Shown in pieces: positions 4,713 through 52,918 of a stretch of DNA of 64,000 bases. The notes beneath the pieces were generated by a model that had not been told where the DNA came from, searched no databases, and worked only from the letters and a program-made list of their open reading frames with translations. The position numbers and the translations under genes were made by a program. The stretch's first letter is position 1, and every line of letters begins with the position of its first letter. Source of the stretch: a virus (lineage: Duplodnaviria; Heunggongvirae; Uroviricota; Caudoviricetes); the IMG/VR virus record IMGVR_UViG_3300021166_000052, positions 197,424 to 261,423 of that record, one strand, 5' to 3'.

Positions 4713-5198
4713 ATGAAAACCGAAGATAAATTTTTATTACATTTACTTGAAACCGCTATACGCATTGCTGTAACTGCTCATGCTGGGGTAATGGATAAAG
4801 CGGGTGTACCGTATATATTACACCCTCTCCGTATCATGGGTGGAGCCAAGGCACTTAAAGAGAAAATAGTTGGTGTTCTTCATGATACCATCGAAGATAC
4901 TGATGAAAACAGTTTATTAAATGTAACATTTGAATATCTTAGGGAAGAAGGGTTTCCTGATGATATCATTGAGGCGCTTGATTCCGTTACCCATCGTAAA
5001 GGTGAACCTTATGCAGATTATATACAACGTGCAAAGAAAAATATAATCGGTAGAAAGGTGAAAATACTTGACTTACGTGATAATTCTGATATATTCAGAT
5101 TACATTCGGTTGAGGAAAAGCATCTTAAACAAATGAAACGATATCATGCCGCAATGCTTGAATTGCGAAAGGATGGTAAAGTTTACATAACGAGGTGA
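4713..5198 (+). CDS. small alarmone hydrolase, RelA/SpoT-type HD domain ((p)ppGpp hydrolase)
   Basis: HD-domain motifs H...HD (LHDTIEDT) typical of SpoT/Mesh1 hydrolases. 161 aa, so a single-domain protein. Confidence 0.6.
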   Translation: MKTEDKFLLHLLETAIRIAVTAHAGVMDKAGVPYILHPLRIMGGAKALKEKIVGVLHDTIEDTDENSLLNVTFEYLREEGFPDDIIEALDSVTHRKGEPYADYIQRAKKNIIGRKVKILDLRDNSDIFRLHSVEEKHLKQMKRYHAAMLELRKDGKVYITR

Positions 5199-5955: not shown

Positions 5956-6918
5956 GTGGATATTTTTTTATATAGAGGACAAACTATTATGAATAATAAA
6001 TATAATGTTATAATTAGGGATGTTGGTGTATGTGGAATGAGGATTCAGATCGATGATCTTCACGATGCTCATATTGAACTAATTAACATAATGTTGGAAA
6101 CTCATAAACGGCTTATTATTGTACTAGGGGTGCGGCCTATTATATTTACTGCAAAAAATGCATTAACATTTCAAATGAGAAAACAGGCATTTTTTGAAGT
6201 GTTTGGAAATTATAAACATCGTATTACTTTATTATATATAAACGATGTAAGAGATGATCACATATGGTCAAATAATTTTGATAATCTTATCAAAAACAAT
6301 ATTAAGGAAAACGAAACTGTTAGATGTTGCGGAGGGAGGGATTCATTTTTAAATTATTATCATAATAATATTTATGAAAAATGGGTCATTACTGATTTTA
6401 CTCAGTCAGAATTCATTTCTGCAACTGCTAAACGGAATGAGATTGCTAAAACTACAATATTTGATTCTTCATTTAGGCGGGGTGTTATTTATTCCGCATT
6501 AAATTTACCGGGACAATGTGTGCCTTCAATTGATGTAGCAATATATGATCATTATGGTAATATATTAATGGGGCAACGGGTCGATGAATTATCATATCGT
6601 TTTATTGGGGGATGGGTTCAACCGAGAGAAACGTTTGAAATGGCGTGTAATCGAATTGTAAAAACCAAATGTGGAATCGCTATTGATAATTTACAACCAA
6701 TACGTAGTTTTTGTAATTTTGATTGGAAATTTAAAGGTGAACGAGATGATTTGACAACCATGTTATATACTGCATATATAACAGAAGGTACACCTGAACC
6801 ACTGGGAAATCTTAAATATCTACGATGGGTTTCGATTGTTGATATACTGAATGTGGTCGATTCAGAACATTTGGAATTGGCAAAATCTATTTACGAGTTA
6901 CATAATGCATCAAACTAA
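5956..6918 (+). CDS. NMN adenylyltransferase-like / Nudix-fold bifunctional protein (NatV/NadM-like)
   Basis: N-terminal cytidylyltransferase-like segment (G.R.Q....HDAH). C-terminal Nudix-like box GGWVQPRETFEMACNRIV, which is degenerate. Size and architecture match phage NatV, and it sits adjacent to Nampt. Confidence 0.5.
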   Translation: MDIFLYRGQTIMNNKYNVIIRDVGVCGMRIQIDDLHDAHIELINIMLETHKRLIIVLGVRPIIFTAKNALTFQMRKQAFFEVFGNYKHRITLLYINDVRDDHIWSNNFDNLIKNNIKENETVRCCGGRDSFLNYYHNNIYEKWVITDFTQSEFISATAKRNEIAKTTIFDSSFRRGVIYSALNLPGQCVPSIDVAIYDHYGNILMGQRVDELSYRFIGGWVQPRETFEMACNRIVKTKCGIAIDNLQPIRSFCNFDWKFKGERDDLTTMLYTAYITEGTPEPLGNLKYLRWVSIVDILNVVDSEHLELAKSIYELHNASN

Positions 6919-7184: not shown

Positions 7185-8624
7185 GTGAATACAATGGAAC
7201 AAGATATGAGAAGTTTGGTAGAAGAATTTAATGTTATGACTGCAACCGATAGCTATAAACTCGGACGCGACCGCATGTTCTCTGAAGGGACCGAAAGTGT
7301 ATCCTCTTATTTTGAAGCTAGAGATGGTGCAAAATTTCAATATAATGTATTTTGTACACTCCAATATTTGTGTATGAAATATCTCTGTGGTAAGCAAGTC
7401 ACGAAAGCTAAAATCGATTGGGCTGAATATCTTTCTGAACTTCACCTCGGTCAGAAGGGCGCATTTGATCGATCCGGTTGGGATTACATCCTTCAAAAAT
7501 ACGATGGCCGGTTGCCTATTGAAATCTGTGCAGTTGCCGAAGGAACCCCTGTTCCAACTGGTAATGTTATGATGCAGATCAGAAATACCGATCCCAAAGT
7601 ACCAGTGTTATCAAATGCGATTGAGTCGATGATTACCCATGTTTGGGCAGGAACTACCGGAGCAAGTTTATCAAGGTATATCAAACAGATGCAAAAACGA
7701 TTTCTTGATATTTGTTGCGATACCCCCGATGAAGTTCTTCCTTTTATGCTGCATGATTTTGGTTATCGAGGGTCGTCAAGCCATGAATCTGCCAGACAAG
7801 TAGGCGCTGGTCACTTGCTCAATTTTTTAGGAACTGATACAGTACCAGCGATGGAATTGCTCATTCAATATTATGGAGCGTCTATTGATAGAGCGACTTT
7901 CAATGCAGGGTTTTCTATTTTTGCAACAGAACATCTTATCATGACTCAAAAAGGTGAAGCTGGTGAATTTGATGTAGTTGAAGAATTGTTGAATAAATAT
8001 CCCACTGGCAACCTTGCGATGGTAATTGATAGTTATAACTGGAAACGTTTTATTGAAACCATGGGAACACCTCGTTTCAAAGACCGTATATTGAACCGGG
8101 ATGGTAAGATTATTTTTCGGCCAGATTCAGGAAAGCCAGTTCCCACATCATTTGGTGTATGGAAAGGGCTTGCTAATATTTTTGGGTATGATACAAATAA
8201 TAAACGATATGATGTATTGAATCCAAAGGTTAGTACAATTTGGGGCGATGGTATTGATGAAGTCGAAGGTGAATCCATCTACCAAAACTTTATTGATAAT
8301 AAAATCTCGATTGAAAACTGTCCACTTGGTATGGGTGGCAATCTACATCAGAAAATCAATCGTGATACACAAAGGAACGCCTTTAAAGGTTCGTTTGTTC
8401 AACGTAATGGTGTTGGTTATGATATCTTTAAAGACCCCATTGATGGTAGTAAAAAATCTAAAAAGGGTAGGCTTGCTTTGATTAAAGATGCGGCGGGTAA
8501 TTTCCAAACCCTTCAGGGTGTGACCGGTCCAGTTGAGGGTGATCTTCTAATCCCAGTATTCCGTAATGGTGAGATGTTGAAAACATATACCCTTAATGAA
8601 ATGAGAGCAAACGCTGCATTATAA
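7185..8624 (+). CDS. nadV: nicotinamide phosphoribosyltransferase (Nampt / NadV)
   Basis: 479 aa. N-terminal TDSYK motif and overall Nampt-like length and composition. No in-frame TAG and six TGG Trp codons. Confidence 0.75.
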   Translation: MNTMEQDMRSLVEEFNVMTATDSYKLGRDRMFSEGTESVSSYFEARDGAKFQYNVFCTLQYLCMKYLCGKQVTKAKIDWAEYLSELHLGQKGAFDRSGWDYILQKYDGRLPIEICAVAEGTPVPTGNVMMQIRNTDPKVPVLSNAIESMITHVWAGTTGASLSRYIKQMQKRFLDICCDTPDEVLPFMLHDFGYRGSSSHESARQVGAGHLLNFLGTDTVPAMELLIQYYGASIDRATFNAGFSIFATEHLIMTQKGEAGEFDVVEELLNKYPTGNLAMVIDSYNWKRFIETMGTPRFKDRILNRDGKIIFRPDSGKPVPTSFGVWKGLANIFGYDTNNKRYDVLNPKVSTIWGDGIDEVEGESIYQNFIDNKISIENCPLGMGGNLHQKINRDTQRNAFKGSFVQRNGVGYDIFKDPIDGSKKSKKGRLALIKDAAGNFQTLQGVTGPVEGDLLIPVFRNGEMLKTYTLNEMRANAAL

Positions 8625-9092: not shown

Positions 9093-9614
9093 ATGATTAC
9101 ATTAGCAACAACATGTGGTATCTTTATTATAAATAAATTCAAACAAATACTTACATGTCATCCAACGGGTCATCATCCATTGCAATTGGATATACCAAAA
9201 GGATGTTTAGATCGAGGAGAAACTGTGTCTCAATGTGTTGTTAGAGAACTGTTAGAAGAAACTGGGATTGATTATTATACATTACAGCGGCCATTAATAG
9301 ATATTAGTGCGATACATGGGACATTTATATATAAGCATAAGAAAAAACAATTATATACATTTATGTTACAACTAAATGACACAATAGATGTAACTACCTT
9401 GAAATGTACAAGTATGGTTACGAGTGTACCCATTCCATTTCCAGAAGTAGATTCTTTTGCATGGATAGAATATAACGAAAGAGAGTTGCTACATGAATCT
9501 CAGCAACGTGCCATAGAAGTAATTAATGATCAATATAATATATTTGATTTACATTCATCCAAAGATGAAAATACTCAATATATAACAATTTCTAAAAGTA
9601 ATAATTATGGTTAA
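9093..9614 (+). CDS. Nudix hydrolase
   Basis: Canonical Nudix box GCLDRGETVSQCVVRELLEETGI (G-x5-E-x7-REUxEExGU). Confidence 0.7.
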   Translation: MITLATTCGIFIINKFKQILTCHPTGHHPLQLDIPKGCLDRGETVSQCVVRELLEETGIDYYTLQRPLIDISAIHGTFIYKHKKKQLYTFMLQLNDTIDVTTLKCTSMVTSVPIPFPEVDSFAWIEYNERELLHESQQRAIEVINDQYNIFDLHSSKDENTQYITISKSNNYG

Positions 9615-22788: not shown

Positions 22789-23574
22789 ATGAAAACTTTT
22801 TATTTTTTAGCGGGGTTGCCTCGATCTGGGTCAACTGTATTGGCCTCAATTTTAAATCAAAATCCGGGTATATATGTGACACCCACAAGCCCAATGTTAG
22901 ATTTATTGATAGCTAATCAAAATGCTTGGTATGATGCCCCATCGGTAAAAGCAAATCCTTTTCCAGAACAATTGACAAATATTACAAGGGCAATGATTGC
23001 TGCATCATGGCAACACCGACCCGAAAATATTATAATTGATAAAAATAGAGGATGGATGAAAAATATTGAAGCGTCTGAAATATTATTTAATAAAAAAGTT
23101 AAGATGGTTGTCACTACCAGAGATTTACCTAGTATAATGGCATCGTGGTTACGATTGATAAAAGATAACACTGACTGTTATTTTATAAGAATGCTAAAAG
23201 GTAAACATCTTAAAATTACAGATGATAGTATATTATCAGAAATGTGGTTTAATATGGTAAAAGATTGTATGGAAGGTTTAAAAAATGTTAAATTAATTGC
23301 ATCTGATAGGATACTCTTAATTGATTATGATAATTTTGTAAATAATCCATATGATATATTAAATAATATAACTACATTTTTAGAATTACCTATTTATAAT
23401 TATGACATTAATAATATTATAAATGATACTCATGATGATGATCTTACTGCGTGGGGTTTAGATGGTATGCACACAATACGGCCAATTTTACAAAAACAAT
23501 CAAATGATCCACGAATGTTATTAGGTGATCATTTATATAATAGATTTATTCATATAGAAAAACAATACAATTAA
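22789..23574 (+). CDS. sulfotransferase-family protein
   Basis: N-terminal GLPRSGSTVL matches the PAPS 5'-phosphosulfate-binding loop (PKSGTT-like) of sulfotransferases. Confidence 0.5.
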   Translation: MKTFYFLAGLPRSGSTVLASILNQNPGIYVTPTSPMLDLLIANQNAWYDAPSVKANPFPEQLTNITRAMIAASWQHRPENIIIDKNRGWMKNIEASEILFNKKVKMVVTTRDLPSIMASWLRLIKDNTDCYFIRMLKGKHLKITDDSILSEMWFNMVKDCMEGLKNVKLIASDRILLIDYDNFVNNPYDILNNITTFLELPIYNYDINNIINDTHDDDLTAWGLDGMHTIRPILQKQSNDPRMLLGDHLYNRFIHIEKQYN

Positions 23575-26236: not shown

Positions 26237-27322
26237 ATGCTGAAAGTACAAAGCTATATTTTAGAAAAAGGTATCGAGTCTTTGACCACTGAGTTTGGAA
26301 TCAGTGTCAGAAAGTACGAAGAATTTGGAATTATGACACTTAATTATTCCCAAATTGATTCACCTAAACATGACGATATTGTAAAAGAGTGCCGTGCATT
26401 AATTTTAGAATTGGATGCACCTTATACTGTCGTTTCGAGAACTTATGATCGGTTTTTTAATTACGGGGAATGTCCCCTATCAGATCAGTTCAATGTAACA
26501 GATTATGTATTCTGGGAAAAACTTGACGGAAGTATTATTCCGGTATATAATCATTCAGGCGCATGGTACGCCGCAACACGTAAATTGGCTTTTGCCGAAG
26601 GAGAAAATTCACAGGGTTTTTGTTTCAACGATATGGTTAGAAATACCATTGATTTCAATGTGTTTGATGCCATTGACTCTGATTATACTGTAATTTTTGA
26701 ATTTGTATCTCCTAAAAATCGTATAGTAAAACGATACCTAGAGGATGAGGCATATCTTACCGGTGTTCGGAATAAAAGAACCGGTGAGGAACTTAATGAT
26801 CGTGAACTTATTGACTTCGCTGCGAAATATGGATTTAAAATCCCTAAATCGTACAAGTTCAAAACTCTCGATGATGCATTGGCAAGTTTGAAAGATTTTG
26901 ATCCTTTTGATGAAGGGTTTGTATGTGTCAATTATGATAATATGCACCGCATCAAAATTAAAAATCCATCATATGTAGCAATTGCTCACTTGAGGGACAA
27001 CGGTGTGATTTCTCCAAAACGAATCGCGTTGTTAGTTCTTGAACAGGATCATGAAGAATATTTAGCACATTTCAGTGAAGATGCACAATTTTTCCAACCA
27101 TTTATTGATGCCTATGAAGTAATGAGAGCGGATATTAATGATTGTGTTGAAAAGTACATGGGAATTGAAAATCAAAAAGAATTTGCGCTGTCAATTGCTG
27201 ACATCCCCGCAAAAAGTATTTTGTTTCAGATGCGAAAGGGTTTTTCTTTCGGGGAAGTCTTGAAAAAGGTTACATCTGAAGGTAAGCTAAATCTTCTTAA
27301 TAATTACATTAAGGATGAATAA
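26237..27322 (+). CDS. ATP-dependent RNA ligase, T4 Rnl1-like
   Basis: Nucleotidyltransferase motif I EKLDGS (KxDG), motif IV EGFV and motif V KIKIKN. About 360 aa like Rnl1. Confidence 0.6.
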   Translation: MLKVQSYILEKGIESLTTEFGISVRKYEEFGIMTLNYSQIDSPKHDDIVKECRALILELDAPYTVVSRTYDRFFNYGECPLSDQFNVTDYVFWEKLDGSIIPVYNHSGAWYAATRKLAFAEGENSQGFCFNDMVRNTIDFNVFDAIDSDYTVIFEFVSPKNRIVKRYLEDEAYLTGVRNKRTGEELNDRELIDFAAKYGFKIPKSYKFKTLDDALASLKDFDPFDEGFVCVNYDNMHRIKIKNPSYVAIAHLRDNGVISPKRIALLVLEQDHEEYLAHFSEDAQFFQPFIDAYEVMRADINDCVEKYMGIENQKEFALSIADIPAKSILFQMRKGFSFGEVLKKVTSEGKLNLLNNYIKDE

Positions 27323-28912: not shown

Positions 28913-30241
28913 ATGAAACAAGTAGAAATTCCTAATGATTATTTTTTGAAAATGTCCCAGAAAGATTACGGTCAGTTTGAAACTGCCCTCATTAGGGAAT
29001 TCTTTCAAAATAGCTATGATGCCCATGCAACACAAGTGGTGTTTGATTATGATACCGATTCAGGTGAATTAATCGTGTTTGATGATGGTATTGGTATGGA
29101 TTATGATACCATCACAACTAAGTTGTTAGTAATGGGTATGTCCCAGAAGGATTCCCCAACCGCAGTAGGGGCCTTCGGTCATGCTAAAATATTATTATAT
29201 TTTTCATGGGAACAATGGGAAATCAGAACTCATAATTATATAGTCAGTGGTTGTTCACATTATTATACCATTACTGAAACTGATGATTTTGTAGACGGTA
29301 CAATTTCAACAATTAAAGTTAATAATACACTGCAACAATTTAGCTATCATTTTCGTCAATTTTTTACAAAATGTGATACTAAATGTAAAGTGTTTTTGAA
29401 ATATGGAACCGATGATATGGTTGAGGTTCTTCAATCATATCAAATTGGTGATAAAATTTATTCCGATGATAGTTTTGATATCTATAAATCGGAGCATACT
29501 GGTTATTATGTAATCATCCGCCAAAATGGAGTGTTCATGTTCCAAGAATTTATTAGTGGAACAATGAAAAAACAAGCCATTGTTGAAATTAATCAAAAAC
29601 CAGAGCTACTTTTTCTTCAAAATCGAGATTATTTCAATAGTGCTATTAGTGATAAATTTAATAAAATTAAACAGGAATTTGTTAGTGATTCTATTGAATC
29701 GTTTACTGTTAATCACGATACAACTGAAACCACATTTAAACAGTATGAAATACAATCAGTGGATGAAACCAGTAATCAACTTGTAACAACTAATAAAATT
29801 GTTACCCATCAAATGGATACCGACGATGGTATTAAAGAAATAAATCGTCATAGATCAAAACGGTTGCTTCATATTGCATATGCTTACTCACAACTGATTC
29901 AAAATGATTACACTTTTGGTCGTAATATTATTTTTGGATTCACCAATGATAATAATCTTAGGGGCTTGTGGAAATATAATTCGGATTCATCAGAACATGA
30001 AATCTATATAAATTTGAAAGAAATAACTGCACATTCTCCAAATTATCGTAAGATGTCAATCATTTTACTTAATGTTATTAAACATGAAATGTCTCATGCA
30101 TATAATTATGAAGCAAATTCAAATATTCGTCACGATGAAGAATTTGTTAAAACTCTTGAACGTATGAATGATGAATATTGGGATACCACCCCATTCACAA
30201 CAAAGTTTAAAGAAATTTGGAAAAAGACCTCCAGAGGATAA
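28913..30241 (+). CDS. GHKL-family (Bergerat fold) ATPase domain protein with C-terminal HExxH motif
   Basis: N-box REFFQNSYDA, G1 box FDDGIGMD and G2-like GAFGHAKI. C-terminal IKHEMSHAY zincin-like HExxH. Confidence 0.5.
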   Translation: MKQVEIPNDYFLKMSQKDYGQFETALIREFFQNSYDAHATQVVFDYDTDSGELIVFDDGIGMDYDTITTKLLVMGMSQKDSPTAVGAFGHAKILLYFSWEQWEIRTHNYIVSGCSHYYTITETDDFVDGTISTIKVNNTLQQFSYHFRQFFTKCDTKCKVFLKYGTDDMVEVLQSYQIGDKIYSDDSFDIYKSEHTGYYVIIRQNGVFMFQEFISGTMKKQAIVEINQKPELLFLQNRDYFNSAISDKFNKIKQEFVSDSIESFTVNHDTTETTFKQYEIQSVDETSNQLVTTNKIVTHQMDTDDGIKEINRHRSKRLLHIAYAYSQLIQNDYTFGRNIIFGFTNDNNLRGLWKYNSDSSEHEIYINLKEITAHSPNYRKMSIILLNVIKHEMSHAYNYEANSNIRHDEEFVKTLERMNDEYWDTTPFTTKFKEIWKKTSRG

Positions 30242-31351: not shown

Positions 31352-32680
31352 ATGGATGGTACATGGGAAGAACGGCATGAAAAAATGAAGCAACAGCGAA
31401 CACAATTGGCATGGAAATTGTTGAAATTGGTAGTGTTGCCAATGATTTGTTTCCTGATTTTTATCAATATTATCAGTCATTGCATTGGTAATAATGCAGC
31501 AGGGACACGTACTGTTGTACAATATGTAAACGGGTCAATGTTTGTAAAATTTGATCCGGGTTGGTATATGAAGTGGTTCGGTAAAACGACAGTCTATAAA
31601 GATGTATTGACGTTTGATTTTGACCGTGATCAAAATTCATCACAAGCAACGATTGACCAGAAAGGTATCAGTGTTCGATATGGTCAAGATGGCGGTACTG
31701 GTCATGTATATGGTATTGCTCGGTTTATTCTTCCTGCTGATGAACCATCGATGATTTTGATTCATCGAGAATTTATGTCGTTTGAAGGTATTGCCTATAA
31801 ACTGGTGAAATCTGTTACGGAAGAATCAATGAACCTAACTGCTAGTTTGATGTCATCGGAGGATGCATATGCAACGAAACGAGCAACGTTCACTGATATG
31901 ACTCGCCGCCAGATTGCCAATGGACCATTTATTACTGATCAAAAATCAGTTGAACATAAAGATGAAATTACAGGAAAAACGACGACAGGTGTTATTTCAG
32001 TAATTAAAAATGACCCGTCAACCAATCTTCCAATGCATTCAAATTCGGATTTGAAAAAATATAATATCACGCTTACTAGCATTCAGTTGGGTGATCCTGA
32101 TTTTGAGGGTAAAACACTGGAACAGATCGCCGCCAAACGGGAAGCGACCAATGCTATTATTACCGCCAAAGCCAATGCAGAACGCGCAAAACAAGACGCT
32201 ATTACCGCAGAGGAACAGGGCCTAGCTAATGTAAAAAAAGCTCAATATGAAAAAGAAGTATTAAAACGACAGGCAACTGTTGACGCTGAAAAAGAGAAAG
32301 AGGTTGCTACCATCAAAGCTCAACAGGCGGTCGAAGTTGCTAGACAGTCAAAGCTGGAAGCAACTGAACGGAAGTTGGGGGCGGTTGAATATAAACAAGA
32401 GCAGGTATTAAAAGGTGAAGGTGATGGTGCATATAAGCGGCTGGTAATGGAAGCCGATGGCGCATTGGCACAAAAACTTGATGCAATTGTTAAAATCAAT
32501 ACCGCATATGCCCATGAATTTGGAAAACAAAAATGGGTTCCAGAAATCCAATTCAATGGTACTGGCGCAACAGGTCAACAGTCAGCGGCTTCTGATTTTA
32601 TGAGTATCTTAACGGCTAAAACTGCCAGAGATATAGGGGTTGATATGGGAGTGGGAACCCATTCTGGTTCAAAAAAATAA
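31352..32680 (+). CDS. SPFH/band-7 (flotillin-like) membrane protein with C-terminal coiled coil
   Basis: N-terminal TM helix. SPFH-like core. Long Ala/Glu/Lys/Gln-rich heptad region. Confidence 0.45.
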   Translation: MDGTWEERHEKMKQQRTQLAWKLLKLVVLPMICFLIFINIISHCIGNNAAGTRTVVQYVNGSMFVKFDPGWYMKWFGKTTVYKDVLTFDFDRDQNSSQATIDQKGISVRYGQDGGTGHVYGIARFILPADEPSMILIHREFMSFEGIAYKLVKSVTEESMNLTASLMSSEDAYATKRATFTDMTRRQIANGPFITDQKSVEHKDEITGKTTTGVISVIKNDPSTNLPMHSNSDLKKYNITLTSIQLGDPDFEGKTLEQIAAKREATNAIITAKANAERAKQDAITAEEQGLANVKKAQYEKEVLKRQATVDAEKEKEVATIKAQQAVEVARQSKLEATERKLGAVEYKQEQVLKGEGDGAYKRLVMEADGALAQKLDAIVKINTAYAHEFGKQKWVPEIQFNGTGATGQQSAASDFMSILTAKTARDIGVDMGVGTHSGSKK

Positions 32681-34540: not shown

Positions 34541-35302
34541 GTGATGTTAGATACTTTTAAAAAGAAGGTTGCTCAAGCGTTTTTTAAAACTGAACAAGTT
34601 GAAAAAACTCATGGACAGCAGCTAATAATGAACCCACTCGAAATGAAAGTTGGTAGTGTTTTTGAAATTAAAACAAATAATGATAGGATTTATAAATCAT
34701 TATTTAAAAAACAATCGGAATATAATGTTGTTGCGATTGGTGTAGCTAAATTGACCGAATTTGTAACGGCATATAGATTTTATGATTCGGTTAAAAATTC
34801 AGCAATAGCGGGTGTTGCTGATAGTTTTCTTCAAATATTGGTTAGTTCAAGAGGTAATGAACAGACCGTATTGGAGCGCCGGATGTTTCAGTTGAAAGCC
34901 GAAGATTTTCCTAAAAGCACCCTTGCTTGGAATAATTGGGTGGGCATGGAAGGAAGTATCATCGGTAAATTTGACGCATCATTTGAAGACCGGGCCTTCG
35001 AAAGATTAGAAGGTTGGTCAAGTACTGATGGTGAATGGTCCCCTGCCAAACATTATGTTGAACAGGTTGTAGAAAAAGTAGACGCATCGGTTATTACAGT
35101 TGTCACACACGATGCAATGTTGTATGGTAGATGGCTCAATGAGCAAAACCAAGTTGCTGAGTATATATTATATACAAGCGATTCGGTTAAAATAAATACA
35201 AAATCTAATGTATATCTTACTGCATCATTTGATGTGATTGAAGCAGTTGGAACATATGTTGGAATTGATGTAACTGAAAACGATATCGTTGTAAAGTTCT
35301 AA
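34541..35302 (+). CDS. hypothetical protein
   Basis: 253-aa ORF. Confidence 0.45.
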   Translation: MMLDTFKKKVAQAFFKTEQVEKTHGQQLIMNPLEMKVGSVFEIKTNNDRIYKSLFKKQSEYNVVAIGVAKLTEFVTAYRFYDSVKNSAIAGVADSFLQILVSSRGNEQTVLERRMFQLKAEDFPKSTLAWNNWVGMEGSIIGKFDASFEDRAFERLEGWSSTDGEWSPAKHYVEQVVEKVDASVITVVTHDAMLYGRWLNEQNQVAEYILYTSDSVKINTKSNVYLTASFDVIEAVGTYVGIDVTENDIVVKF

Positions 35303-37057: not shown

Positions 37058-37414
37058 ATGCAAACATCATATTTTGCAAAATATCGTGGTGATAAAGGTT
37101 GTAATATTGCAGCATGGCCCATAAAAGGATTTACTGGTATGCTATATCCTAAACTCTATCCATATTGGAGTTTTTTTAGTGCATATAAAGACACCATGAG
37201 TCAAACACCAGAAAATTTTCTTCAAGCACAAGAAGCATATACTAAAGAATATTATAGAATGGTATTGGATAGACTTGACCCTAAACAAGTTTATAATGAG
37301 TTGAAGGGATATGTATTATTATGCTATGAGAAACCCGGAGATTTTTGTCATAGGAGGTTGGTTGCTGATTGGATCGAAAAATCTATCGGCATTGAAGTAC
37401 CAGAAATAGTTTAG
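37058..37414 (+). CDS. hypothetical protein
   Basis: 118-aa ORF. Confidence 0.4.
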   Translation: MQTSYFAKYRGDKGCNIAAWPIKGFTGMLYPKLYPYWSFFSAYKDTMSQTPENFLQAQEAYTKEYYRMVLDRLDPKQVYNELKGYVLLCYEKPGDFCHRRLVADWIEKSIGIEVPEIV

Positions 37415-38057: not shown

Positions 38058-38567
38058 ATGAATAAAGCTGATTTTCAACGATTACCTATAGGTTATAAAT
38101 ATTGTATGGATTGTTTTGGATTTACACCCCATACTAAAATAAATCAAAATGGTAACGATGTTTTTATATGTGATGTTTGTACTAATGAAATTGTTTGGTA
38201 CAATAATCCATGTGATTTATGTGGATATATTTTTGGAACTGAAGAAATATATGAACCCGATTATCACGAAGAAATTATTCATGGGGAAGGGTGCCATCTT
38301 AATACTAATCTTTTTGATTATACATTGCGTAGTTTTGTTGATAGTTTATCATATGAAGATCGGTTTAAATTATCTAATAAAATTAGATATGAAGAATCCA
38401 TTGAATGTGGTTGTAAATCGGTTGTAATCTTTCATAATAATCACAGAGTTGCATATCGGTCATGGTCAGTTTATTCGATGGATTGCATGAATGCAACGGA
38501 GTGGGAAGTTACAATGAAATGTCCTATTTGCGGTGAGTTATCAATATTTAGTGATGGTAGTTGTTAA
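38058..38567 (+). CDS. Cys-rich (multi zinc-ribbon) protein
   Basis: Multiple CxxC pairs. Confidence 0.4.
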   Translation: MNKADFQRLPIGYKYCMDCFGFTPHTKINQNGNDVFICDVCTNEIVWYNNPCDLCGYIFGTEEIYEPDYHEEIIHGEGCHLNTNLFDYTLRSFVDSLSYEDRFKLSNKIRYEESIECGCKSVVIFHNNHRVAYRSWSVYSMDCMNATEWEVTMKCPICGELSIFSDGSC

Positions 38568-38620
38568 ATATCAACAAAAAAATAAAGGTAAAACAATTGA
38601 AAAAAATTATAATTTAGACA

Positions 38621-39055
38621 TTGGGTTTGTTGGGATTATGTGTTAATGCAAACGCCACAATATCAACTAATACTCAATGTGGTTATGTATGTAATGTCGA
38701 AACAACCTATCAAGAAATCAGAACACTTGTTTATAAAAAAGTTATACATAATGATGATAAATCATTTGAGGATATGATTAACTCTCTACCACCCCCATCA
38801 GCGGGGCCGGGAAGTAAATTTCTTCAAAATAACATACCCAAACATAATGAATTACATGATTGTAAAAATTATCAAGATTGGGATAAATTATCACAAGAAA
38901 TAGCTAGTGGTGTTGACAACGGTTATAAAATGATTAATAATAAACTATTCACTAATTCTGGGAAAAGATATTTAAGGTGTAATGATCCTGATAATGTATT
39001 TTCAAAATATATTCAAAAATATCCCGATCTAGTCGATAAACGACCAGAAAAGTAG
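38621..39055 (+). CDS. hypothetical protein
   Basis: 144-aa ORF. Confidence 0.35.
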   Translation: MGLLGLCVNANATISTNTQCGYVCNVETTYQEIRTLVYKKVIHNDDKSFEDMINSLPPPSAGPGSKFLQNNIPKHNELHDCKNYQDWDKLSQEIASGVDNGYKMINNKLFTNSGKRYLRCNDPDNVFSKYIQKYPDLVDKRPEK

Positions 39056-39261
39056 GAAGAGTTTATACCAATATTACAAATAAGTTGGGTTGCTATTGAA
39101 AAGTAGGTATGTTATTATATATGTACACCACGCGATCATCCTTCCCATTGTGTTCCTCCTCCAACCCAACCTGTACCAGAGGGATCTACTATGATACTTT
39201 TTGGAATCGGTATATTGGGTTTGCTTGGTATATATAAATCTAAAAAATAATAGAGTATAAA

Positions 39262-39726
39262 ATGAATGAAATAACTGGTAATATTATAGATTTGGCCGAA
39301 CAAGGGCATTTTAATGCTATAATTCATGGTTGTAATTGTTTTGGAAATATGGGCGCTGGCCTCGCTAAAGAAATAAAACAACGATACCACTGTGCATATA
39401 AAGTGGATTATAGAACAATTAAGGGCGACAAATCTAAGTTGGGTACATATTCTTCAGTTTTAACAACGTCTAATGTCAACCCCGATTATAAATTTTATAT
39501 AATTAATGCATATACCCAATTCAGATATGGTGGTAGAACTATCAATGCAGACTATAGGGCCATCCGTAAGGTTATGAGGGCCGTGGCTGAAGATTTTAAA
39601 GAATGTGTACTAGGTATCCCATTGATTGGTGCTGGCCTCGCTGGGGGCGATTGGAGCCTAATTAAGGGTATTATAGAAGAAGAGTTGGTAAATAATAATT
39701 ATACTATTGTACATTTTAAAAAATAA
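39262..39726 (+). CDS. macro-domain protein (ADP-ribose binding/processing)
   Basis: FNAIIHGCNCFGNMGAGLAKEI and later GIPLIGAGLAGG resemble macro-domain Gly-rich loops. Confidence 0.5.
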   Translation: MNEITGNIIDLAEQGHFNAIIHGCNCFGNMGAGLAKEIKQRYHCAYKVDYRTIKGDKSKLGTYSSVLTTSNVNPDYKFYIINAYTQFRYGGRTINADYRAIRKVMRAVAEDFKECVLGIPLIGAGLAGGDWSLIKGIIEEELVNNNYTIVHFKK

Positions 39727-39728
39727 TC

Positions 39729-40256
39729 ATGAATGATAAAAAAATTACATTCAATGCAATTGATTTTGAAGCAAGTACGGGTCTTCGAACATCAGCATGT
39801 GCGGTTGCTATAGTTCGAGTTGAACAGGCTGAAATAAAAGAAGTATGGAGTACTTTAATTAAACCACCTAATAATTACTATTCACAAATGTGCATTGATG
39901 TGCATGGGTTGACACCTCAATGTACTATCAATGCACAGCCTTTTCATAAAATTTATCCAGAAATTATCAAACGTATTGATGGAATGCCTATTGTGGCCCA
40001 TAACGCTCGATATGACAAAAGTGTATTTGATGCATGTAGAAGTGCTATGTTTGCGTCTGATACATTAAATATGACCGAAAAGTGGTATTGTACATATAAA
40101 TTATATAAATCAATCCGAGAAGATAAATCTGAAGGATTGAAATTAAATAATTTATGTGATAAGTATGGAATCTCTCTTAATCATCATGATGCAACATCAG
40201 ATGCACTTGCATGTGCCCATCTATTTATTCATTATCTAAGAAATCATATCAAATGA
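39729..40256 (+). CDS. DnaQ-like (DEDDh) 3'-5' exonuclease
   Basis: Exo I DFEAS, Exo II HNARYD and Exo III HHDATSDA. Confidence 0.65.
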   Translation: MNDKKITFNAIDFEASTGLRTSACAVAIVRVEQAEIKEVWSTLIKPPNNYYSQMCIDVHGLTPQCTINAQPFHKIYPEIIKRIDGMPIVAHNARYDKSVFDACRSAMFASDTLNMTEKWYCTYKLYKSIREDKSEGLKLNNLCDKYGISLNHHDATSDALACAHLFIHYLRNHIK

Positions 40257-40675
40257 ACAGTAATTTTATACAACCATATATATACCTAAAACCATGTCCT
40301 TTTTGTGGAGAAGTGTATGATATATCATTAAAGATTGTTAAAGAAAATGGACAACCAGTATTACAAAATAATGAATATATTTGGTTTGTTGAGTGTCTAC
40401 CTTGTGATGCTGCGACCGGTTGGTATTCCATAGATAATCACAATCAACCAAATAAATCTGGGAAGGATTTGGCAGTAGATGCATGGAATCGGAGAAAATT
40501 TCCAGATTTTGATCAAACTACATGTGAAGAAATAATAATATATGCATCGACCATCGAAGAGTTAATAAATAAAATAAAAATATTAAAAATCGAAACAATT
40601 TTATCCATAAATTATGATATAAATAATCATAATAAAATAAAATGTACGATTATTCATGAGTTTAAATTAGGATAA
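40253..40675 (+). CDS. small zinc-ribbon protein
   Basis: ATG 40253 overlaps the upstream TGA (ATGA). CPFCGE...CLPCDA. Confidence 0.4.
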   Translation: MNSNFIQPYIYLKPCPFCGEVYDISLKIVKENGQPVLQNNEYIWFVECLPCDAATGWYSIDNHNQPNKSGKDLAVDAWNRRKFPDFDQTTCEEIIIYASTIEELINKIKILKIETILSINYDINNHNKIKCTIIHEFKLG

Positions 40676-43093: not shown

Positions 43094-43152
43094 TTGACAA
43101 CAAAGCCACCATTTAGTATTAAGTATATATAAACTTAACTAATGGTGGCTTT
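43094..43152 (+). promoter_or_regulatory. TTGACA-17-TATTAA promoter plus 12-bp inverted repeat (aaagccaccatt ... aatggtggcttt) covering the first ATG of the next gene
   Basis: -35 at 43094-43099. Inverted-repeat arms at 43103-43114 and 43141-43152. The second arm contains ATG 43142 and is followed by TTTT. Confidence 0.35.
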
Positions 43153-43966
43153 TATGTTAAATGAAAAATGTAATCGTACTTTTGCTAACGGTATCGTATA
43201 CTTAATGGAAACCGAGGATGGTTATCCCATTGAAGTGACCGATACATTTTTACCATATTATACCAAAGATGCAGTTGGTCCCCACCAAAATAAACTTTCA
43301 TCCACGGATTTAGGAAGCAGGAATGAGCGGTGGATGGTGGGTGTTTCCACAATGTCCGGTTGTCCCGTAAGATGTAAATTTTGTGCAACTGGTAAATTAA
43401 ATAAGGTTCGCAATCTTACTTGGCAGGAGATTTGTGATCAAGTCCTTTTTGTTATTTATAAGAATCGGGACAGTGAAGGAAATGTAATTTTCAATCCCGT
43501 TGAAGCGAAAGAATTTAAGATTAACTATACTCGAATGGGCGAACCCTTTTTGAACATTGAAAATGTTCGCAAAGCCATTGAGTGGTTGGATGATAGGTTT
43601 CCCGCTATAAGAATTCATCATTATGTTTCAACAATTGGTATTACGGGCGCTGATTATTCATGGATTAAAGATAATGTAACATTACAATTTTCAGTGCATT
43701 CATTTACTGAATCATATCGTAACTGGTTAATCCCATATAAAAATAAAATTTCACTGGAAGAAATGGGAAAAGTTCGAACTAGTAGTAATCTTAAAACAAC
43801 TATTAATTTAACTTTAACTAGACCTGAAGATTTTGATATCGTTGCATTAAAAAACTATTTTAATAAAGAGCATTTTTTTATTAAATTGAGTCCAATTAAT
43901 ACAAATACCATCTCAGAAAAAAATAATATTGTAGATGGTGTTATTCATACGGAGAATATTAAATGA
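43142..43966 (+). CDS. radical SAM enzyme, RlmN/Cfr-family-like
   Basis: GCPVRCKFCATGKLNKVRNLTWQEI closely parallels RlmN [25 protein letters not shown]. True start may be ATG 43154. Confidence 0.6.
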   Translation: MVAFMLNEKCNRTFANGIVYLMETEDGYPIEVTDTFLPYYTKDAVGPHQNKLSSTDLGSRNERWMVGVSTMSGCPVRCKFCATGKLNKVRNLTWQEICDQVLFVIYKNRDSEGNVIFNPVEAKEFKINYTRMGEPFLNIENVRKAIEWLDDRFPAIRIHHYVSTIGITGADYSWIKDNVTLQFSVHSFTESYRNWLIPYKNKISLEEMGKVRTSSNLKTTINLTLTRPEDFDIVALKNYFNKEHFFIKLSPINTNTISEKNNIVDGVIHTENIK

Positions 43967-44641: not shown

Positions 44642-45532
44642 TTGTATAATTATATCATGAGTGATTTTATTGATAAAATAAAATTTAAAAATAGTGATTG
44701 TAGTTTAAATCAACAACCACCCCAAATTATTAATGAACGGTATGTTAATTTGTATGTTAAAATTGCAGACACTTGTAATGCTAACTGTCCATTTTGCGTT
44801 TATCATAATAAATTCCCCAATTTTATCTTTGATTTTAAAAAATTTAAATATATAATTAACACTTTACTACGAAATGATATTGAAATTCATAAAATTTCGT
44901 TTACAGGTGGAGAACCGACAACTAATAGAAGCGGTTTACATGATGTAATAAAATTTTTAGGACATCTTCCTATTAAACCATTTATAGTGGTCAATACCAA
45001 TGGGTTCCGTTTGGATTGGTTAACTACTTTAGATGGTATTGATAGTATAGCATTATCACGTCATGCAGTTTCTGATAATGATCAATATCAAATAATGAAC
45101 ACCAAAACGTGCCCAACTGCGAGTAATATACAATTTCATGCAAGTGATAAAATTCACTTGACATGTAACCTTATTAATGGTTATATTGATAGTGTATATA
45201 AGGTTGAGGAATATTTGGAATTCTGTCAATCTATTGGTATTTATGATGTCGGGTTCGTTAGTTTGATGAAAGTAAATCACTATTGCGAACAACATCACTT
45301 GGATTTTGATGATATTAAAATTGAAACATCCGGGAGGGTAGCATGTAACAGAGAATGGAATTGCACCGATATATGCAAATGTAAAAATTATTTATATTTA
45401 CCCACCAAAGGCACCAGATTAGTGAAGTTCTATTCACGATATCGATGTAAGGATAATGTTGACATGGGTAGCACATTGGTATATGATGGAACTTCACTAA
45501 GAACAAATTTTTCTTCAGACGTTTTAATATGA
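44642..45532 (+). CDS. radical SAM enzyme with Cys-rich C-terminal (SPASM/twitch-like) extension
   Basis: CNANCPFC near the N-terminus. C-terminal CNREWNCTDICKCKNY. Confidence 0.55.
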   Translation: MYNYIMSDFIDKIKFKNSDCSLNQQPPQIINERYVNLYVKIADTCNANCPFCVYHNKFPNFIFDFKKFKYIINTLLRNDIEIHKISFTGGEPTTNRSGLHDVIKFLGHLPIKPFIVVNTNGFRLDWLTTLDGIDSIALSRHAVSDNDQYQIMNTKTCPTASNIQFHASDKIHLTCNLINGYIDSVYKVEEYLEFCQSIGIYDVGFVSLMKVNHYCEQHHLDFDDIKIETSGRVACNREWNCTDICKCKNYLYLPTKGTRLVKFYSRYRCKDNVDMGSTLVYDGTSLRTNFSSDVLI

Positions 45533-47343: not shown

Positions 47344-48015
47344 ATGATTATATCGACAGCTTTTCAAGATGAATTATTAACGAATTCATGGGAACGATGT
47401 TGGGGATATATCGCATTAAATAAAAATGATATGTTACGAGATATGATTATTTGGAAGTACTCTGATCCACGTAGGCATTATCATAATATTAGTCATTTAA
47501 TTGGGTGCGTTCAAGAGTTTAAGGCTAATTATGAATTAGCAATTGATCCCTTTTTAGTTGAGTTGGCAATATGGATTCATGATATTGAAAATGATATCAA
47601 TTCAAAAACCAATGAATTTGATAGTTTTATGTTTTTTATGGATCATATAGGATCAACCGAAGTTGAGCAATTTGGATTGAGTAAAATTCCGCTTAGAAAA
47701 TTGGTATTGAGCACAAAGCATAACTTATCTATCACAGAAAGTTCACCGGACCAAAATCTTATATGTGATATTGATTTAGTGACACTGGGCGCAGATGATT
47801 TTACTTTTGATAATTATTGTCGTAAAATTCGTAAAGAATATAGTACTATACCCGATGATATATATTATCCAGAGCGTTTAAAAATATTATTATTATTTTT
47901 AAATAAAGATAATATATATAGAACTAAACAATTTAGAAAAAAATATGAAAGCAAAGCCAGAGAAAACTTGACAAAAGAAGTTAATCGGATTAGTATGATA
48001 ATCAATAACCTATAA
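47344..48015 (+). CDS. HD-domain phosphohydrolase
   Basis: H...H (YHNISH) and HD (IWIHDIEND) motifs. Confidence 0.45.
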   Translation: MIISTAFQDELLTNSWERCWGYIALNKNDMLRDMIIWKYSDPRRHYHNISHLIGCVQEFKANYELAIDPFLVELAIWIHDIENDINSKTNEFDSFMFFMDHIGSTEVEQFGLSKIPLRKLVLSTKHNLSITESSPDQNLICDIDLVTLGADDFTFDNYCRKIRKEYSTIPDDIYYPERLKILLLFLNKDNIYRTKQFRKKYESKARENLTKEVNRISMIINNL

Positions 48016-48020
48016 CTTAA

Positions 48021-48257
48021 ATGGGTGGTATCATGGCATTTATAAAAATTGAATTGGATCGATGTGTTGATATTACTAGAAATATTAAATGCCCGTATGT
48101 CACTGAAAAATTGACAAAAGGTTATGGTTATGCAGTTGATTATATGTGTAGATTAAATGATAATAAAATTGTATCGGGTTATGTTGAATGGGATAGAGAT
48201 GTAAACCCCGTTCCAGATTGGTGCCCATTGTTAATTAAGGATAATATTAATGACTGA
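48021..48257 (+). CDS. hypothetical protein
   Basis: 78-aa ORF. Confidence 0.4.
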   Translation: MGGIMAFIKIELDRCVDITRNIKCPYVTEKLTKGYGYAVDYMCRLNDNKIVSGYVEWDRDVNPVPDWCPLLIKDNIND

Positions 48258-49269
48258 TTTTAAAATAACTTACGAGCGAGACATTGAACATTGTACTGTC
48301 TCACCTTATATTAAATTTGTGACTATATCAGATGTATATAATGCAATCAATTCTGATATGTTAGATTGTGTAAAATTTGATGAAATAGGGTGGCAAGCTG
48401 TGTCAGCTAGGGGTACACGAAAGGTTGGTGATCGTGTATTATTTATCCCAGCCGAGTCAGTATTACCATTCGAGTTGGGTGAGTTACTTGATGTGACAAA
48501 ATATCTTTCTAAGGGAAGAGTTCGAGTCACATCGTTACGTGGCAACCGTTCAGAGGGTATTATTGTTGAAGAGGATGTTATTGGTCCTTATATTCCATAT
48601 ATTATGAAATGGGAAGATTTACCATCTATTTCAATGTGTGGTCAGCAACTAGCAGCGGCTGAAATAAGCCCATATATACATAGATTTTATAAAATGCCCA
48701 ACATTTTAAATGAACCAAAGACATTTGATGTGGGAGAAACTATACATTATAGTGAGAAAATTCATGGAACTAATTGGAGAGTTGGTATTTTACCACATCC
48801 TGTTACAGAAGAGTTAATGTTATATACGGGTAGTCATGATGTGGTATTGCAATTAACCGGTGAGAATGTATATGTCAGAGCCGCTACTGCTGTACAAGAA
48901 AATTTACCAGAAGGAATATTATTTTTTGGTGAAATTTTTGGCAGGGGTATTCAACATTTAAATTATGGCACTGTATTTGGGTATAGATTTTTTGCAGCTA
49001 CCAGAAGAGGTGAATATTTACCAATTGATGAATTTACTCAAATTTGTAAATTACATAATTTACCATATGTAGAGTTGAGTAAAATTATATTCACAGGTGA
49101 CATTGAACCAATTCGTCAATTATCAGAGGGCCAATCTGAATATGCAGACCATATCAAAGAAGGTATTGTTATGGTTTCTGATAAATACCCCGAACGGATG
49201 GCAAAATGTATCAGTTTTGTCTATTTGGAAAATAAGAATGGAAAACGAAAACGAACTGAACGACATTAA
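48250..49269 (+). CDS. ATP-dependent RNA ligase, T4 Rnl2-like
   Basis: Motif I EKIHGTN identical to T4 Rnl2. Motif III FFGEIFG, motif IV EGIVMV and motif V K..K. Confidence 0.7.
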   Translation: MTDFKITYERDIEHCTVSPYIKFVTISDVYNAINSDMLDCVKFDEIGWQAVSARGTRKVGDRVLFIPAESVLPFELGELLDVTKYLSKGRVRVTSLRGNRSEGIIVEEDVIGPYIPYIMKWEDLPSISMCGQQLAAAEISPYIHRFYKMPNILNEPKTFDVGETIHYSEKIHGTNWRVGILPHPVTEELMLYTGSHDVVLQLTGENVYVRAATAVQENLPEGILFFGEIFGRGIQHLNYGTVFGYRFFAATRRGEYLPIDEFTQICKLHNLPYVELSKIIFTGDIEPIRQLSEGQSEYADHIKEGIVMVSDKYPERMAKCISFVYLENKNGKRKRTERH

Positions 49270-51014: not shown

Positions 51015-51752
51015 ATGCAAACCATTAAATACCGATAGACCCCCGATACACCCGATTTTAGAGATTATTCATATTCAATTAAATCAGTAACAATTCCCGA
51101 TAGAGTAGATTTACGATCATTATGTTCTCCCATTGAAGATCAATCATCATTGGGTAGTTGTACGGGCCAAGCTATCGTCGGCGCATTAGAAATTTTAGAA
51201 AATAAAAATAAATCTAATTTTGTTGATTTATCAAGATTGTTTGTATATTACAACGAACGAATGTTGGAACGGACCATTTTGATAGACGCTGGTGCAACAC
51301 TTCGAAGTGGTATTAAAACCATGGCAATTTATGGTGTTTGTAATGAAACGCTATAGCCGTATGATATTTTAAAATTTAAGCGCAAACCTACCACCAAATG
51401 TTATAAAGACGCTACACAAAGAAAAATTACATCATATTATCGTTTAAATACTTTAAATGATAAATTAAATTGTTTAGCATCTGGATACCCATTTGTATTT
51501 GGGTTTATGGTGTATGATTCGTTTGAAACTGAAGAAGTTACATCGACCGGTTATATGAGTATGCCTAATATTACCGATAAAGCATTGGGGGGCCATGCGG
51601 TTTGCGCGGTTGGATATGATAAATTAAAAAAATTATTTATTATAAGAAATTCATAGGGTAAAAACTGGGGCGACTGTGGCTATTTCTATATGCCATTTGA
51701 TTATGTCACAAATAATAATTTATCGGATGATTATTAGCAAATTGTAAAATGA
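51015..51752 (+). CDS. papain-family (C1) cysteine peptidase (4 in-frame TAG)
   Basis: Codon-checked frame 0 from ATG 51015 to TGA 51750-51752. VDLRS / IEDQSSLGSCTGQAIVGALE matches VDWR...QGSCGSCWAF, the catalytic Cys region. GGHAVCAVGYD matches the catalytic His. IIRNS(TAG)GKNWGDCGY matches IKNSWGxxWGxxGY. TAG codons at 51036, 51354, 51654 and 51735. Confidence 0.7.
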
Positions 51753-51832: not shown

Positions 51833-52918
51833 ATGAAAATAGTTATAACTGGTGGTATTGGATCGGGTAAATCTACAATTGCTAAATTTGTTAGAGATAA
51901 TCTATTACCATCATTTGATTTTATTAGTGTTGATGACATTGTTGCAAATATTTATTCATTGGAAGACATTCGTGATAAATTGATATCAACTTTTAACACA
52001 TGTGATAAAAAAACTATCAGTAAATTGGTATTTAATGATTCTATATTATTAAATAAACTCTATAATATTTTGAATCCTACTATATTTCATCAACTTCAAA
52101 GTTTTATTTCACTATCCAATAACATTATTATTGAATTTCCTTTATATTTTCAATTTGGTGATTCTTTTAAAGATGACATTGATTATGTATTACATGTCAA
52201 ATGTAATAATACTGCTCGTAAACAGAGAGTTATATCACGTGATAATATAACAGAAGATATGTTCAATAAAATTGATGCATGTCAATGGTATAAAACCGAA
52301 ACAACTGATAATATCATACCAATTTATAACGATGATATTAATACCGCTTATAATCATGTAATATTAGCTATCAATGCTATCAAGAAAAAAATAAAATATA
52401 ATAAAAAAGGTATAGTATCAGGATCATTCGATCCTATTACACATGGACATCTTCATATTATTAAAACTGCGATTACTATTGTTGATCAAGTTTATGTAGT
52501 GGTCGGACGAAATTACGAAAAAAAACATTACTTTGATATATGGGAACGGATCAATCTAGTACGACAATCAATTGACGAACACTTTACAGCAATTGAAAAG
52601 GAGAAAATTGTATTTGATATTCTCGAAGAAAATGAATTACTTGTTACATTTGCTAAAACCAATGACATAGGTTTTATTTTTAGAGGACTACGTGATTTTA
52701 TCGATTTGGGTTATGAAACTAAATTAAATTTGGTTCAAAAAAAGATTGCACCGACGATTGAAACGGTTTATCTTTTTACCCCTAGAGATAAAATTGAAAT
52801 CAGTAGTTCTATGATTAAAAGCAATTTAAGTTTACATGAATGGGAACTGGTTGTAAAAGATTATATACCAACTTGTGTTTTCAATGCATTAAAGGATAAA
52901 AGAAATCATGGTAAATAA
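51833..52918 (+). CDS. bifunctional P-loop kinase (dephospho-CoA kinase CoaE-like) / nucleotidyltransferase (PPAT CoaD-like, HxGH family)
   Basis: N-terminal KIVITGGIGSGKSTIA is the CoaE signature. C-terminal GIVSGSFDPITHGHLHIIK is the PPAT/NMNAT (T/H)xGH motif. Confidence 0.55.
   Translation: MKIVITGGIGSGKSTIAKFVRDNLLPSFDFISVDDIVANIYSLEDIRDKLISTFNTCDKKTISKLVFNDSILLNKLYNILNPTIFHQLQSFISLSNNIIIEFPLYFQFGDSFKDDIDYVLHVKCNNTARKQRVISRDNITEDMFNKIDACQWYKTETTDNIIPIYNDDINTAYNHVILAINAIKKKIKYNKKGIVSGSFDPITHGHLHIIKTAITIVDQVYVVVGRNYEKKHYFDIWERINLVRQSIDEHFTAIEKEKIVFDILEENELLVTFAKTNDIGFIFRGLRDFIDLGYETKLNLVQKKIAPTIETVYLFTPRDKIEISSSMIKSNLSLHEWELVVKDYIPTCVFNALKDKRNHGK

Follow-up and report, generated by a model that had tools for sequence, protein, structure and literature searches.

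Large bacteriophages are known to encode more than one RNA ligase. Combinations of RtcB, Rnl1, and Rnl2-type ligases have been described in jumbo phages, phage XacN1 encodes three RNA ligase paralogs, and fusions of HNH domains to ligases have been reported in the same group (Iyer et al. 2021, PMC7824862). In that account, the multiple phage ligases are read as nonredundant repair enzymes acting with polynucleotide kinase (Pnk) and phosphoesterases, and HD-family phosphodiesterases and alarmone hydrolases are listed as counter-nucleotide enzymes. Ligases of the Rnl5 family, represented by Deinococcus DraRnl and Naegleria NgrRnl, join nicks having RNA as the 3′-OH strand, and Deinococcus without DraRnl is radiation-sensitive, according to two reports (PMC5397189, PMC4408790). 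In a gene cluster of Runella slithyformis, a ligase open reading frame (ORF) overlaps HD-Pnk, and the Runella ligase forms an enzyme-AMP and sealed no standard 3′-OH/5′-PO4 substrate among those tried (PMC6097658). Here, we analyze three RNA ligase homologs, Lig1 (26237–27322), Lig2 (48250–49269), and Lig3 (59295–59927), all encoded on the plus strand of a 64-kb stretch of DNA (the window; positions 197,424 to 261,423 of IMG/VR record IMGVR_UViG_3300021166_000052). The source is an uncultured jumbo phage of ~276 kb; the window represents ~23% of the contig (276,095 bp), and every negative result given below for the window applies to that part of the genome.

A sequence-only reading of the window had proposed three distinct RNA ligase homologs, and this was borne out: the ORFs and motifs are as described, and all three proteins pass their Pfam gathering scores. 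No DNA-ligase Pfam match was found for any of them, and none resembles a DNA ligase or a capping enzyme. Profile classification placed them in the Rnl1, Rnl5, and HD-Pnk-associated families, respectively, and they are thereby predicted to be intact ATP-dependent RNA ligase homologs of three different families. The best explanation, which we hold with moderate confidence, is that this three-family set serves for sealing in the repair of RNA breaks as a counter-defense. Lig1, Lig2, and Lig3 would act as catalytically intact ATP-dependent 3′-OH/5′-PO4 RNA ligases and would perform the sealing step in the repair of breaks, mainly in transfer RNA (tRNA), made by host ribonuclease defenses. Labor would be divided by type of break, with the Rnl1-type enzyme acting on single-stranded anticodon-loop breaks and the Rnl5-type enzyme on nicks in duplex RNA. 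The kinase and phosphatase needed for end healing would, if present at all, be encoded elsewhere in the genome. The proposal builds on the families to which the proteins belong, on their intact motifs, on the company of healing enzymes that Lig3 relatives keep in bacteria, and on the jumbo-phage precedent; the in vivo substrates and the counter-defense role are what we infer. This RNA-repair reading is reasonable and not new in kind, and the description of the toolkit as unusually elaborate was an overstatement, since multi-ligase combinations and the XacN1 paralogs had already been described (PMC7824862).

The 361-aa product of Lig1 matched Pfam RNA_lig_T4_1 (E = 1.1e-17; 65.1 bits against a gathering cutoff of 28.3), phrog_562 (E = 4e-50, residues 14–346 aligned), and the T4 Rnl1 structures 2c5u and 5tt6 (E = 3e-16, residues 31–321), the last alignment including part of the C-terminal domain. 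Of the 361 residues, the alignments extend to residue 321 with the T4 structure, 320 with TIGR02308, and 346 with phrog_562. The motifs WEKLDGS, FEFVSP, EGFVCV, and RIKIKN are present, with the motif I lysine at K95, motif IV at E226-G227, and motif V as KIKIK, and motifs I, III, IV, and V align with T4 K99, E159, E227-G228, and K240/K242. The earlier call of this ORF as Rnl1-like was correct. Because the Pfam cutoff is passed and the TIGR02308 cutoff is missed, Lig1 is classified from its profile scores as a divergent member of the Rnl1 family and not as an equivalog. Its closest phage relatives are ~36% identical, and in one of them, that of Vibrio phage D69, the genes nearby encode Pnk, a Thg1-like protein, a nucleotidyltransferase, and a phosphoesterase.

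Lig2 encodes a 339-aa protein that had been labeled Rnl2-like owing to the motif I heptapeptide EKIHGTN, which we take to be that of T4 Rnl2. The heptapeptide is indeed present (lysine K170, with the motif IV EG at 304); the family assignment did not survive comparison of domain architecture and profiles. Residues 165–312 match PF09414 (E = 1.7e-11; 45.0 bits, cutoff 27), and in front of them lies an N-terminal OB-like module, with a weak Pfam match to PHA02142 OB at residues 26–105; the protein's own match to PF21189 falls under threshold, and PF21189 is recorded on many of its homologs. Rnl5 enzymes consist of an OB-like module at the N terminus and a nucleotidyltransferase at the C terminus, with nothing further; Lig2 has this layout, and its module order and approximate length are those of DraRnl and NgrRnl. 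With T4 Rnl2 and kinetoplastid REL1, Lig2 has the PF09414 nucleotidyltransferase fold and the heptapeptide in common, but in those enzymes the nucleotidyltransferase comes first and a helical domain makes up the C-terminal part. The order in Lig2 is reversed, with an OB module, and Lig3 is a single domain. Lig2 aligns with TIGR02306, the DRB0094 family, from residue 28 to 312 (profile positions 10–319 of 341; E = 1e-16). A family profile built from 21 relatives matched NgrRnl (5cot) over its full length (E = 1.4e-10, 22–329 to 12–338), and the same profile matched T4 Rnl2 in the nucleotidyltransferase part only (E = 1e-5). Because the nucleotidyltransferase is C-terminal and the match is full length to NgrRnl but partial to T4 Rnl2, Lig2 is assigned on profile and architecture to the Rnl5 type and not to Rnl2.

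Metagenomic contigs of large phages often carry relatives of Lig2, named "RNA ligase (TIGR02306 family)," but a search of 50,697 deposited phage records at a cutoff of E 1e-5 detected homologs in only 5. The catalytic lysine and glutamate are invariant among relatives in the Lig2 and Lig3 alignments. In a metagenomic locus (L009, 2009–4065), the Rnl5-type gene stands beside a Lig3 homolog and is apparently divided, with an inserted gene for a GIY-YIG/NUMOD3 homing endonuclease separating an OB-fold ORF from a ligase ORF.

Some of the ligases may serve roles other than counter-defense, Lig1 in gp63-like attachment of tail fibers and Lig2 in the joining of nicks that end in RNA, in the course of replication or DNA repair. 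The annotation of phrog_562 reads "RNA ligase and tail fiber protein attachment catalyst," and Lig1 lies at the edge of a structural block in which TAG is recoded, with a structural-type recoded ORF on one side, an SLT lysozyme on the other, and tail-fiber-like ORFs beside it. For Lig2, the nick preference of Rnl5 enzymes and the radiation sensitivity that follows DraRnl loss (PMC5397189, PMC4408790) point the same way, and an RNase H and a DEDD exonuclease are encoded in the same block. The tail-fiber activity of T4 gp63 is not known to need the catalytic ligase residues. Lig1 nevertheless keeps every one of them, which argues that ligation is under selection, and its closest annotated relatives accompany Pnk and tRNA-repair genes; for a replication role, there is no direct evidence within the window. 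We consider such roles improbable and continue to favor sealing of RNA breaks for both enzymes.

Lig3 encodes a stand-alone ligase nucleotidyltransferase domain of 210 aa that gave the strongest match to PF09414 (E = 1.4e-28; 100.6 bits, cutoff 27). Its motifs are EKLDGEN and EGLVVRT, with K41 in motif I, E163-G164 in motif IV, and K184 in motif V; among relatives 50 to 67% identical to it, K41, E90, E163, G164, and K184 are invariant, and the other hallmarks of the family, a nucleotidyltransferase of ~210 aa with a KYPRTxHL N terminus, are present as well. Some relatives carry an N-terminal HNH domain (HNH fusions of 341 aa). Single-sequence searches of the Protein Data Bank returned nothing for Lig2, Lig3, or HD1, an HD-domain protein encoded next to Lig2 (see below); profile searches recovered a structure match for Lig2 but not for Lig3 or HD1, and AlphaFold2 (AF2) models were used for those two. 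The AF2 model of Lig3 (predicted local distance difference test score 92) best matched the nucleotidyltransferase domains of Rnl5, Rnl3, Rnl2, and REL1 (E ~1e-5), with matches to DNA ligases at 4e-3 or weaker. Within the phage collection, Lig3 homologs are nearly confined to jumbo and huge phages (XacN1, SCTP-2, RsoM2USA, CcrSC, Atu_ph07, and LR7565xx records).

A scan of species-representative genomes yielded at least 590 relatives of Lig3, and the loci of the best 80 of these were examined; the 80 bacterial members are 47 to 54% identical to Lig3. In 52 of the 80 loci the ligase is part of a single Lig-HD-Pnk polypeptide of ~560 to 590 aa, and in a further 24 a separate HD-Pnk gene is found, mostly no more than 30 nt away, so that HD-Pnk is fused or adjacent in 76 and was not found in 4. 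The fusions (L020–L098, e.g., L020 2953–4722) are mostly from Actinobacteria and carry the Lig3-type ligase as the N-terminal domain; they are candidate single-chain heal-and-seal enzymes. A P-loop kinase/HD protein is encoded 15 nt upstream of the Lig3-type ligase in Brevibacillus, and in Flocculibacter an HD/AAA_33 protein overlaps the stop codon of the ligase, and the island around them also encodes two RtcB proteins, RtcA, RlaP, and a PrfH-like protein (Pfam RF-1). In bacteria, the Lig3 family belongs to an RNA repair context of the heal-and-seal type. The correspondence of gene order suggests that the Runella ligase is a member of this family.

In the phage, the immediate neighbor of Lig3 is a 190-aa ORF on the plus strand (58721–59293) that ends 1 nt before it and is a possible partner. 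The protein had no Pfam or PHROG match and no Walker A motif; a homolog (E = 4e-25) is found directly upstream of the Lig3 homolog in the related contig L012. An HD-Pnk profile searched against all six frames of the window gave no match. Lig3 might be a ligase detached from HD-Pnk that works with the 58721–59293 protein or with HD proteins on a nonstandard RNA end, jointly with HD1 as an RNA 2′,3′-cyclic phosphodiesterase and in protection of the phage's own tRNAs, including the TAG suppressor that late genes would require. Action on a nonstandard end would fit the failure of the presumed Runella homolog on ordinary 3′-OH/5′-PO4 substrates. If this were true, HD1 would represent a novel type of healing enzyme, an RNA 2′,3′-cyclic phosphodiesterase of the class I phosphodiesterase fold. 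Of the alternatives that we weighed, this combination is the least probable, and we retain sealing as the role proposed for Lig3.

Two HD-domain phosphohydrolases had been suggested as healing enzymes. Both exist, as shown by matches of HD1 to phrog_19425 "phosphohydrolase" (1e-24) and of a second protein, HD2, to Pfam HD (1e-14), but their closest likenesses are to phosphodiesterases of other kinds. HD1 (47344–48015, plus strand) is an HD-superfamily phosphohydrolase of 223 aa with a YHNxxH...HD motif; it keeps the H...HD...H...D ligands and has no Pfam match. The structures nearest to its AF2 model are the class I cyclic-nucleotide phosphodiesterases, and it may act as a cyclic-nucleotide phosphodiesterase or as an RNA 2′,3′-cyclic phosphodiesterase. 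HD2 (60070–60822, plus strand; first ATG at 60085, in frame) is a soluble PgpH-type HD/HDIG domain of 250 aa that also matches TIGR00277 HDIG. It aligns with the HD domain of Listeria PgpH (4s1b) over residues 19–230 (E = 4e-30), and the segments TYSHS, FYHDIGK, GH, QHHG, and CD match all the His/Asp ligands of the PgpH di-metal site. The domain is found in only eight records of the phage collection, mostly Listeria or Enterococcus records and several of them short. By this homology HD2 is probably a cyclic-dinucleotide phosphodiesterase, and it is a candidate enzyme for degradation of c-di-AMP or cyclic oligonucleotides.

The arrangement of these genes bears on whether both HD proteins, perhaps with a CoaE-like kinase, heal RNA ends, so that HD1-Lig2 and Lig3-HD2 would be self-contained cassettes. 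Each HD gene lies no more than 250 nt from a ligase gene on the same strand. Runella HD-Pnk removes 2′,3′-cyclic, 3′, and 2′ phosphates (as cited in PMC6097658), which indicates that HD domains can heal RNA ends, and HD-like phosphatases are said to be used by some jumbo phages (PMC7824862). A 78-aa ORF on the plus strand (48021–48257; phrog_29585, 4.6e-8) separates HD1 from Lig2, and the same succession of HD1, small ORF, and Rnl5 is retained in the relatives L011 and L013; homologs of the small ORF are found between HD1 and Rnl5 in L011 and at other places in L012 and L013. In L012, the HD1 homolog is 3.3 kb from the Lig3 homolog. In Rhodococcus phage Trina, an HD1 homolog is encoded within a cluster of tRNA genes, with Pnk, a nucleotidyltransferase, and a metallophosphoesterase nearby, a context that leaves a healing role for HD1 possible. 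However, the HD1-Rnl5 pair sits inside a colinear block of ~15 kb, from Macro/RNase T to RNase H, that is common to related phages, so the pairing is not independent evidence; L001, L003, and L006 lack it. HD genes beside Lig2 or Lig3 homologs are not conserved in L001–L010, and HD2 was found near the Lig3 homolog in none of seven other phage loci (L004, L009, L012, L099/XacN1, L100/CcrSC, and L101/LR756508.1, with L005 examined by Pfam only). Neither cassette has a 5′-kinase. Given also the PgpH homology of HD2 and the class I likeness of HD1, self-contained cassettes are unlikely. HD1 and HD2 were also compared with HD-Pnk as possible relatives by BLASTP and hhalign, and the similarity stops at the HD motif. 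An HD gene that adjoins a ligase gene should not automatically be read as encoding a healing enzyme.

Under the sealing proposal, both HD proteins would more likely be second-messenger phosphodiesterases and would form a counter-signaling set with an alarmone hydrolase, a separate anti-defense theme. The latter is a small protein encoded at 4713–5198 that matches a (p)ppApp hydrolase structure (7smg, E = 2.5e-34) and phrog_990 (2e-48) and has no Pfam match; it is likely, from these matches, to counter alarmone-based toxins or signaling.

The CoaE-like P-loop domain that had been put forward as a further contributor to RNA repair is present, at 51833–52918 on the plus strand, but in an ORF with another predicted function. 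An N-terminal dephospho-CoA kinase (DPCK) is fused to a C-terminal phosphopantetheine adenylyltransferase (PPAT), with Pfam matches to CoaE and CTP_transf_like and scores above both equivalog cutoffs (TIGR01510 coaD, 135.3 bits, cutoff 103.3; TIGR00152 CoaE, 68.4 bits, cutoff 65.55), which identifies it by profile as a gene for the last two steps of coenzyme A synthesis. On account of the fusion to PPAT and of the scores against the NCBIfam equivalogs, the CoaE domain is ruled out as an RNA 5′-kinase. The same fusion is encoded in the metagenomic relative L013 (14126–15205); among deposited phage records, coverage of the fusion does not exceed 45%, and PPAT alone is found in some jumbo phages. 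Among the long ORFs of the window, only CoaE contains a Walker A motif, the other match being in a 54-codon stretch of the minus strand. With no 5′-kinase found by the Walker A scan or the HD-Pnk profile, and with HD proteins that are PgpH-like and class I phosphodiesterase-like, the idea of a self-contained healing toolkit is not upheld for the window.

Several results weigh against sealing of RNA breaks as a counter-defense. No polynucleotide kinase, HAD, 2H, or calcineurin phosphatase, RtcB, RlaP, or HD-Pnk was found among ~88 ORFs scanned in the 64 kb, and the 5′-OH kinase and 2′,3′-phosphoesterase that accompany the ligase in T4-type heal-and-seal repair are both missing from the window, which does not demonstrate a complete heal-and-seal pathway for this phage. 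Two of the ligases score under the equivalog cutoffs of their families, Lig1 with 83.3 bits against 242 for TIGR02308 and Lig2 with 60.6 bits against 151 for TIGR02306. The tail-fiber-like and lysozyme genes that adjoin Lig1 also fit the second activity of T4 gp63. The RNA-ligase activity of Lig3 is an assumption, its presumed Runella homolog having sealed no standard substrate that was tried. We know of no anticodon nuclease in the host.

The sequence-only reading had linked the ligases to a suppressor tRNA driving late translation. TAG recoding is real: when TAG is translated as sense, long ORFs tile 943–26121 almost without gaps, and readthrough ORFs match tail-fiber and virion PHROGs across TAG positions, from which it follows that the phage reads TAG as a sense codon in structural genes. 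The peptidase match of ORF 51015–51752 likewise spans TAG positions, and 38561–39250 is a further region in which TAG is apparently sense. All three ligase genes contain zero in-frame TAG codons. The suppressor itself was not found: ARAGORN and Rfam detected only two tRNAs in the 64-kb window, neither with a CUA anticodon. These are the plus-strand genes for tRNA-Leu(UAG) (781–866; Rfam tRNA 50 bits) and tRNA-Ser(GCU) (62155–62242; 51 bits), the first an ordinary sense tRNA and both a possible class of ligase substrates. The tRNA-Leu(UAG) was considered as a TAG suppressor and ruled out, as the codon that it reads is CUA. A link between the ligases and protection of suppressor or own tRNAs is speculation.

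The window has a G+C content of ~31%, nearly all genes lie on the plus strand, and megablast against the phage collection found no deposited phage close at the DNA level. Database entries 100% identical to Lig2, Lig3, and HD1 all come from a single JGI contig of 276,095 bp, and scans of viral and metagenomic contig collections for exact 48-mers of the window gave no match. A cluster of the NAD+ salvage type comprises a NUDIX-containing 320-aa protein (5956–6918), a nicotinamide phosphoribosyltransferase (NAMPT_N and NAPRTase; 7185–8624), and a second NUDIX hydrolase (9093–9614). Radical SAM proteins are encoded at 43142–43966 and 44642–45532, both conserved in L011 and L013, and at 62399–63448; the last, which also matches UPF0004 (MiaB/RimO-type methylthiotransferase), is 157 nt downstream of tRNA-Ser(GCU). 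Three successive genes at 39262–40675 encode a protein with a Macro domain, an exonuclease of the RNase T/DEDD type, and a Lar-like protein for restriction alleviation, the first two conserved in L013. An RNase H is encoded at 53117–53596, and a fragment match to an Ogg-HhH-type DNA glycosylase was detected at 56388–56954. A sulfotransferase is encoded at 22789–23574, and a sulfotransferase is likewise found near the Rnl5 homolog in L003. Genes uncommon in phages include HATPase_c_3 with SprT-like (28913–30241), SPFH/Band 7 (31352–32680), DUF2491 (34541–35302), and a DUF488 family member (37058–37414).

In the phage answer to host defenses that cut tRNA and other RNA, RNA ligases provide the sealing half; they are also a source of enzymes for molecular biology. 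The window extends this repertoire by an Rnl1 of divergent sequence, an Rnl5 of a type rarely borne by phages, and a ligase of minimal size. The last belongs to a widespread family in which identity is still ~50% when a low-GC phage is compared with Streptomyces, and this HD-Pnk-type ligase family is the most useful lead, the bacterial Lig-HD-Pnk fusions providing a handle on what it joins.

Compared with known systems, Lig1 keeps the equivalents of R54, F77, K99, D101, G102, E159, E227, G228, K240, and K242 of T4 Rnl1 (RnlA/gp63), and its alignment partly covers the Rnl1-specific C-terminal region; K75 is replaced by arginine, and overall identity is low. Unlike in the T4 Rnl1/Pnkp pathway, the window contains no Pnkp, and the genes that flank Lig1 serve structure and lysis, not repair. 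Lig2 differs from the Rnl5 enzymes of Deinococcus and Naegleria in being divergent and phage-borne. The bacterial Lig3-type arrangement, a ligase fused to or overlapping HD-Pnk, resembles the Runella ligase/HD-Pnk system of Munir and Shuman, whereas the neighbors of Lig3 in the phage are the 190-aa ORF and a PgpH-type HD protein. HD2 covers the whole crystallized HD domain of the c-di-AMP phosphodiesterase PgpH (Listeria Lmo1466) but is phage-encoded and lacks the extracellular and seven-transmembrane parts. The jumbo-phage multi-ligase sets of XacN1 and BcepSaruman/BcepSauron are alike in encoding several nonredundant ATP-dependent RNA ligases per genome, and Lig3 homologs, including HNH-fused versions, recur in XacN1 and the other jumbo phages listed above. 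What sets the present locus apart is the trio of Rnl1, Rnl5, and HD-Pnk-type ligase, of which homologs occur together in only one deposited record, the huge phage LR756508.1, where a Pnk-like gene lies between the Lig3 and Rnl5 homologs; the present phage, in addition, recodes TAG.

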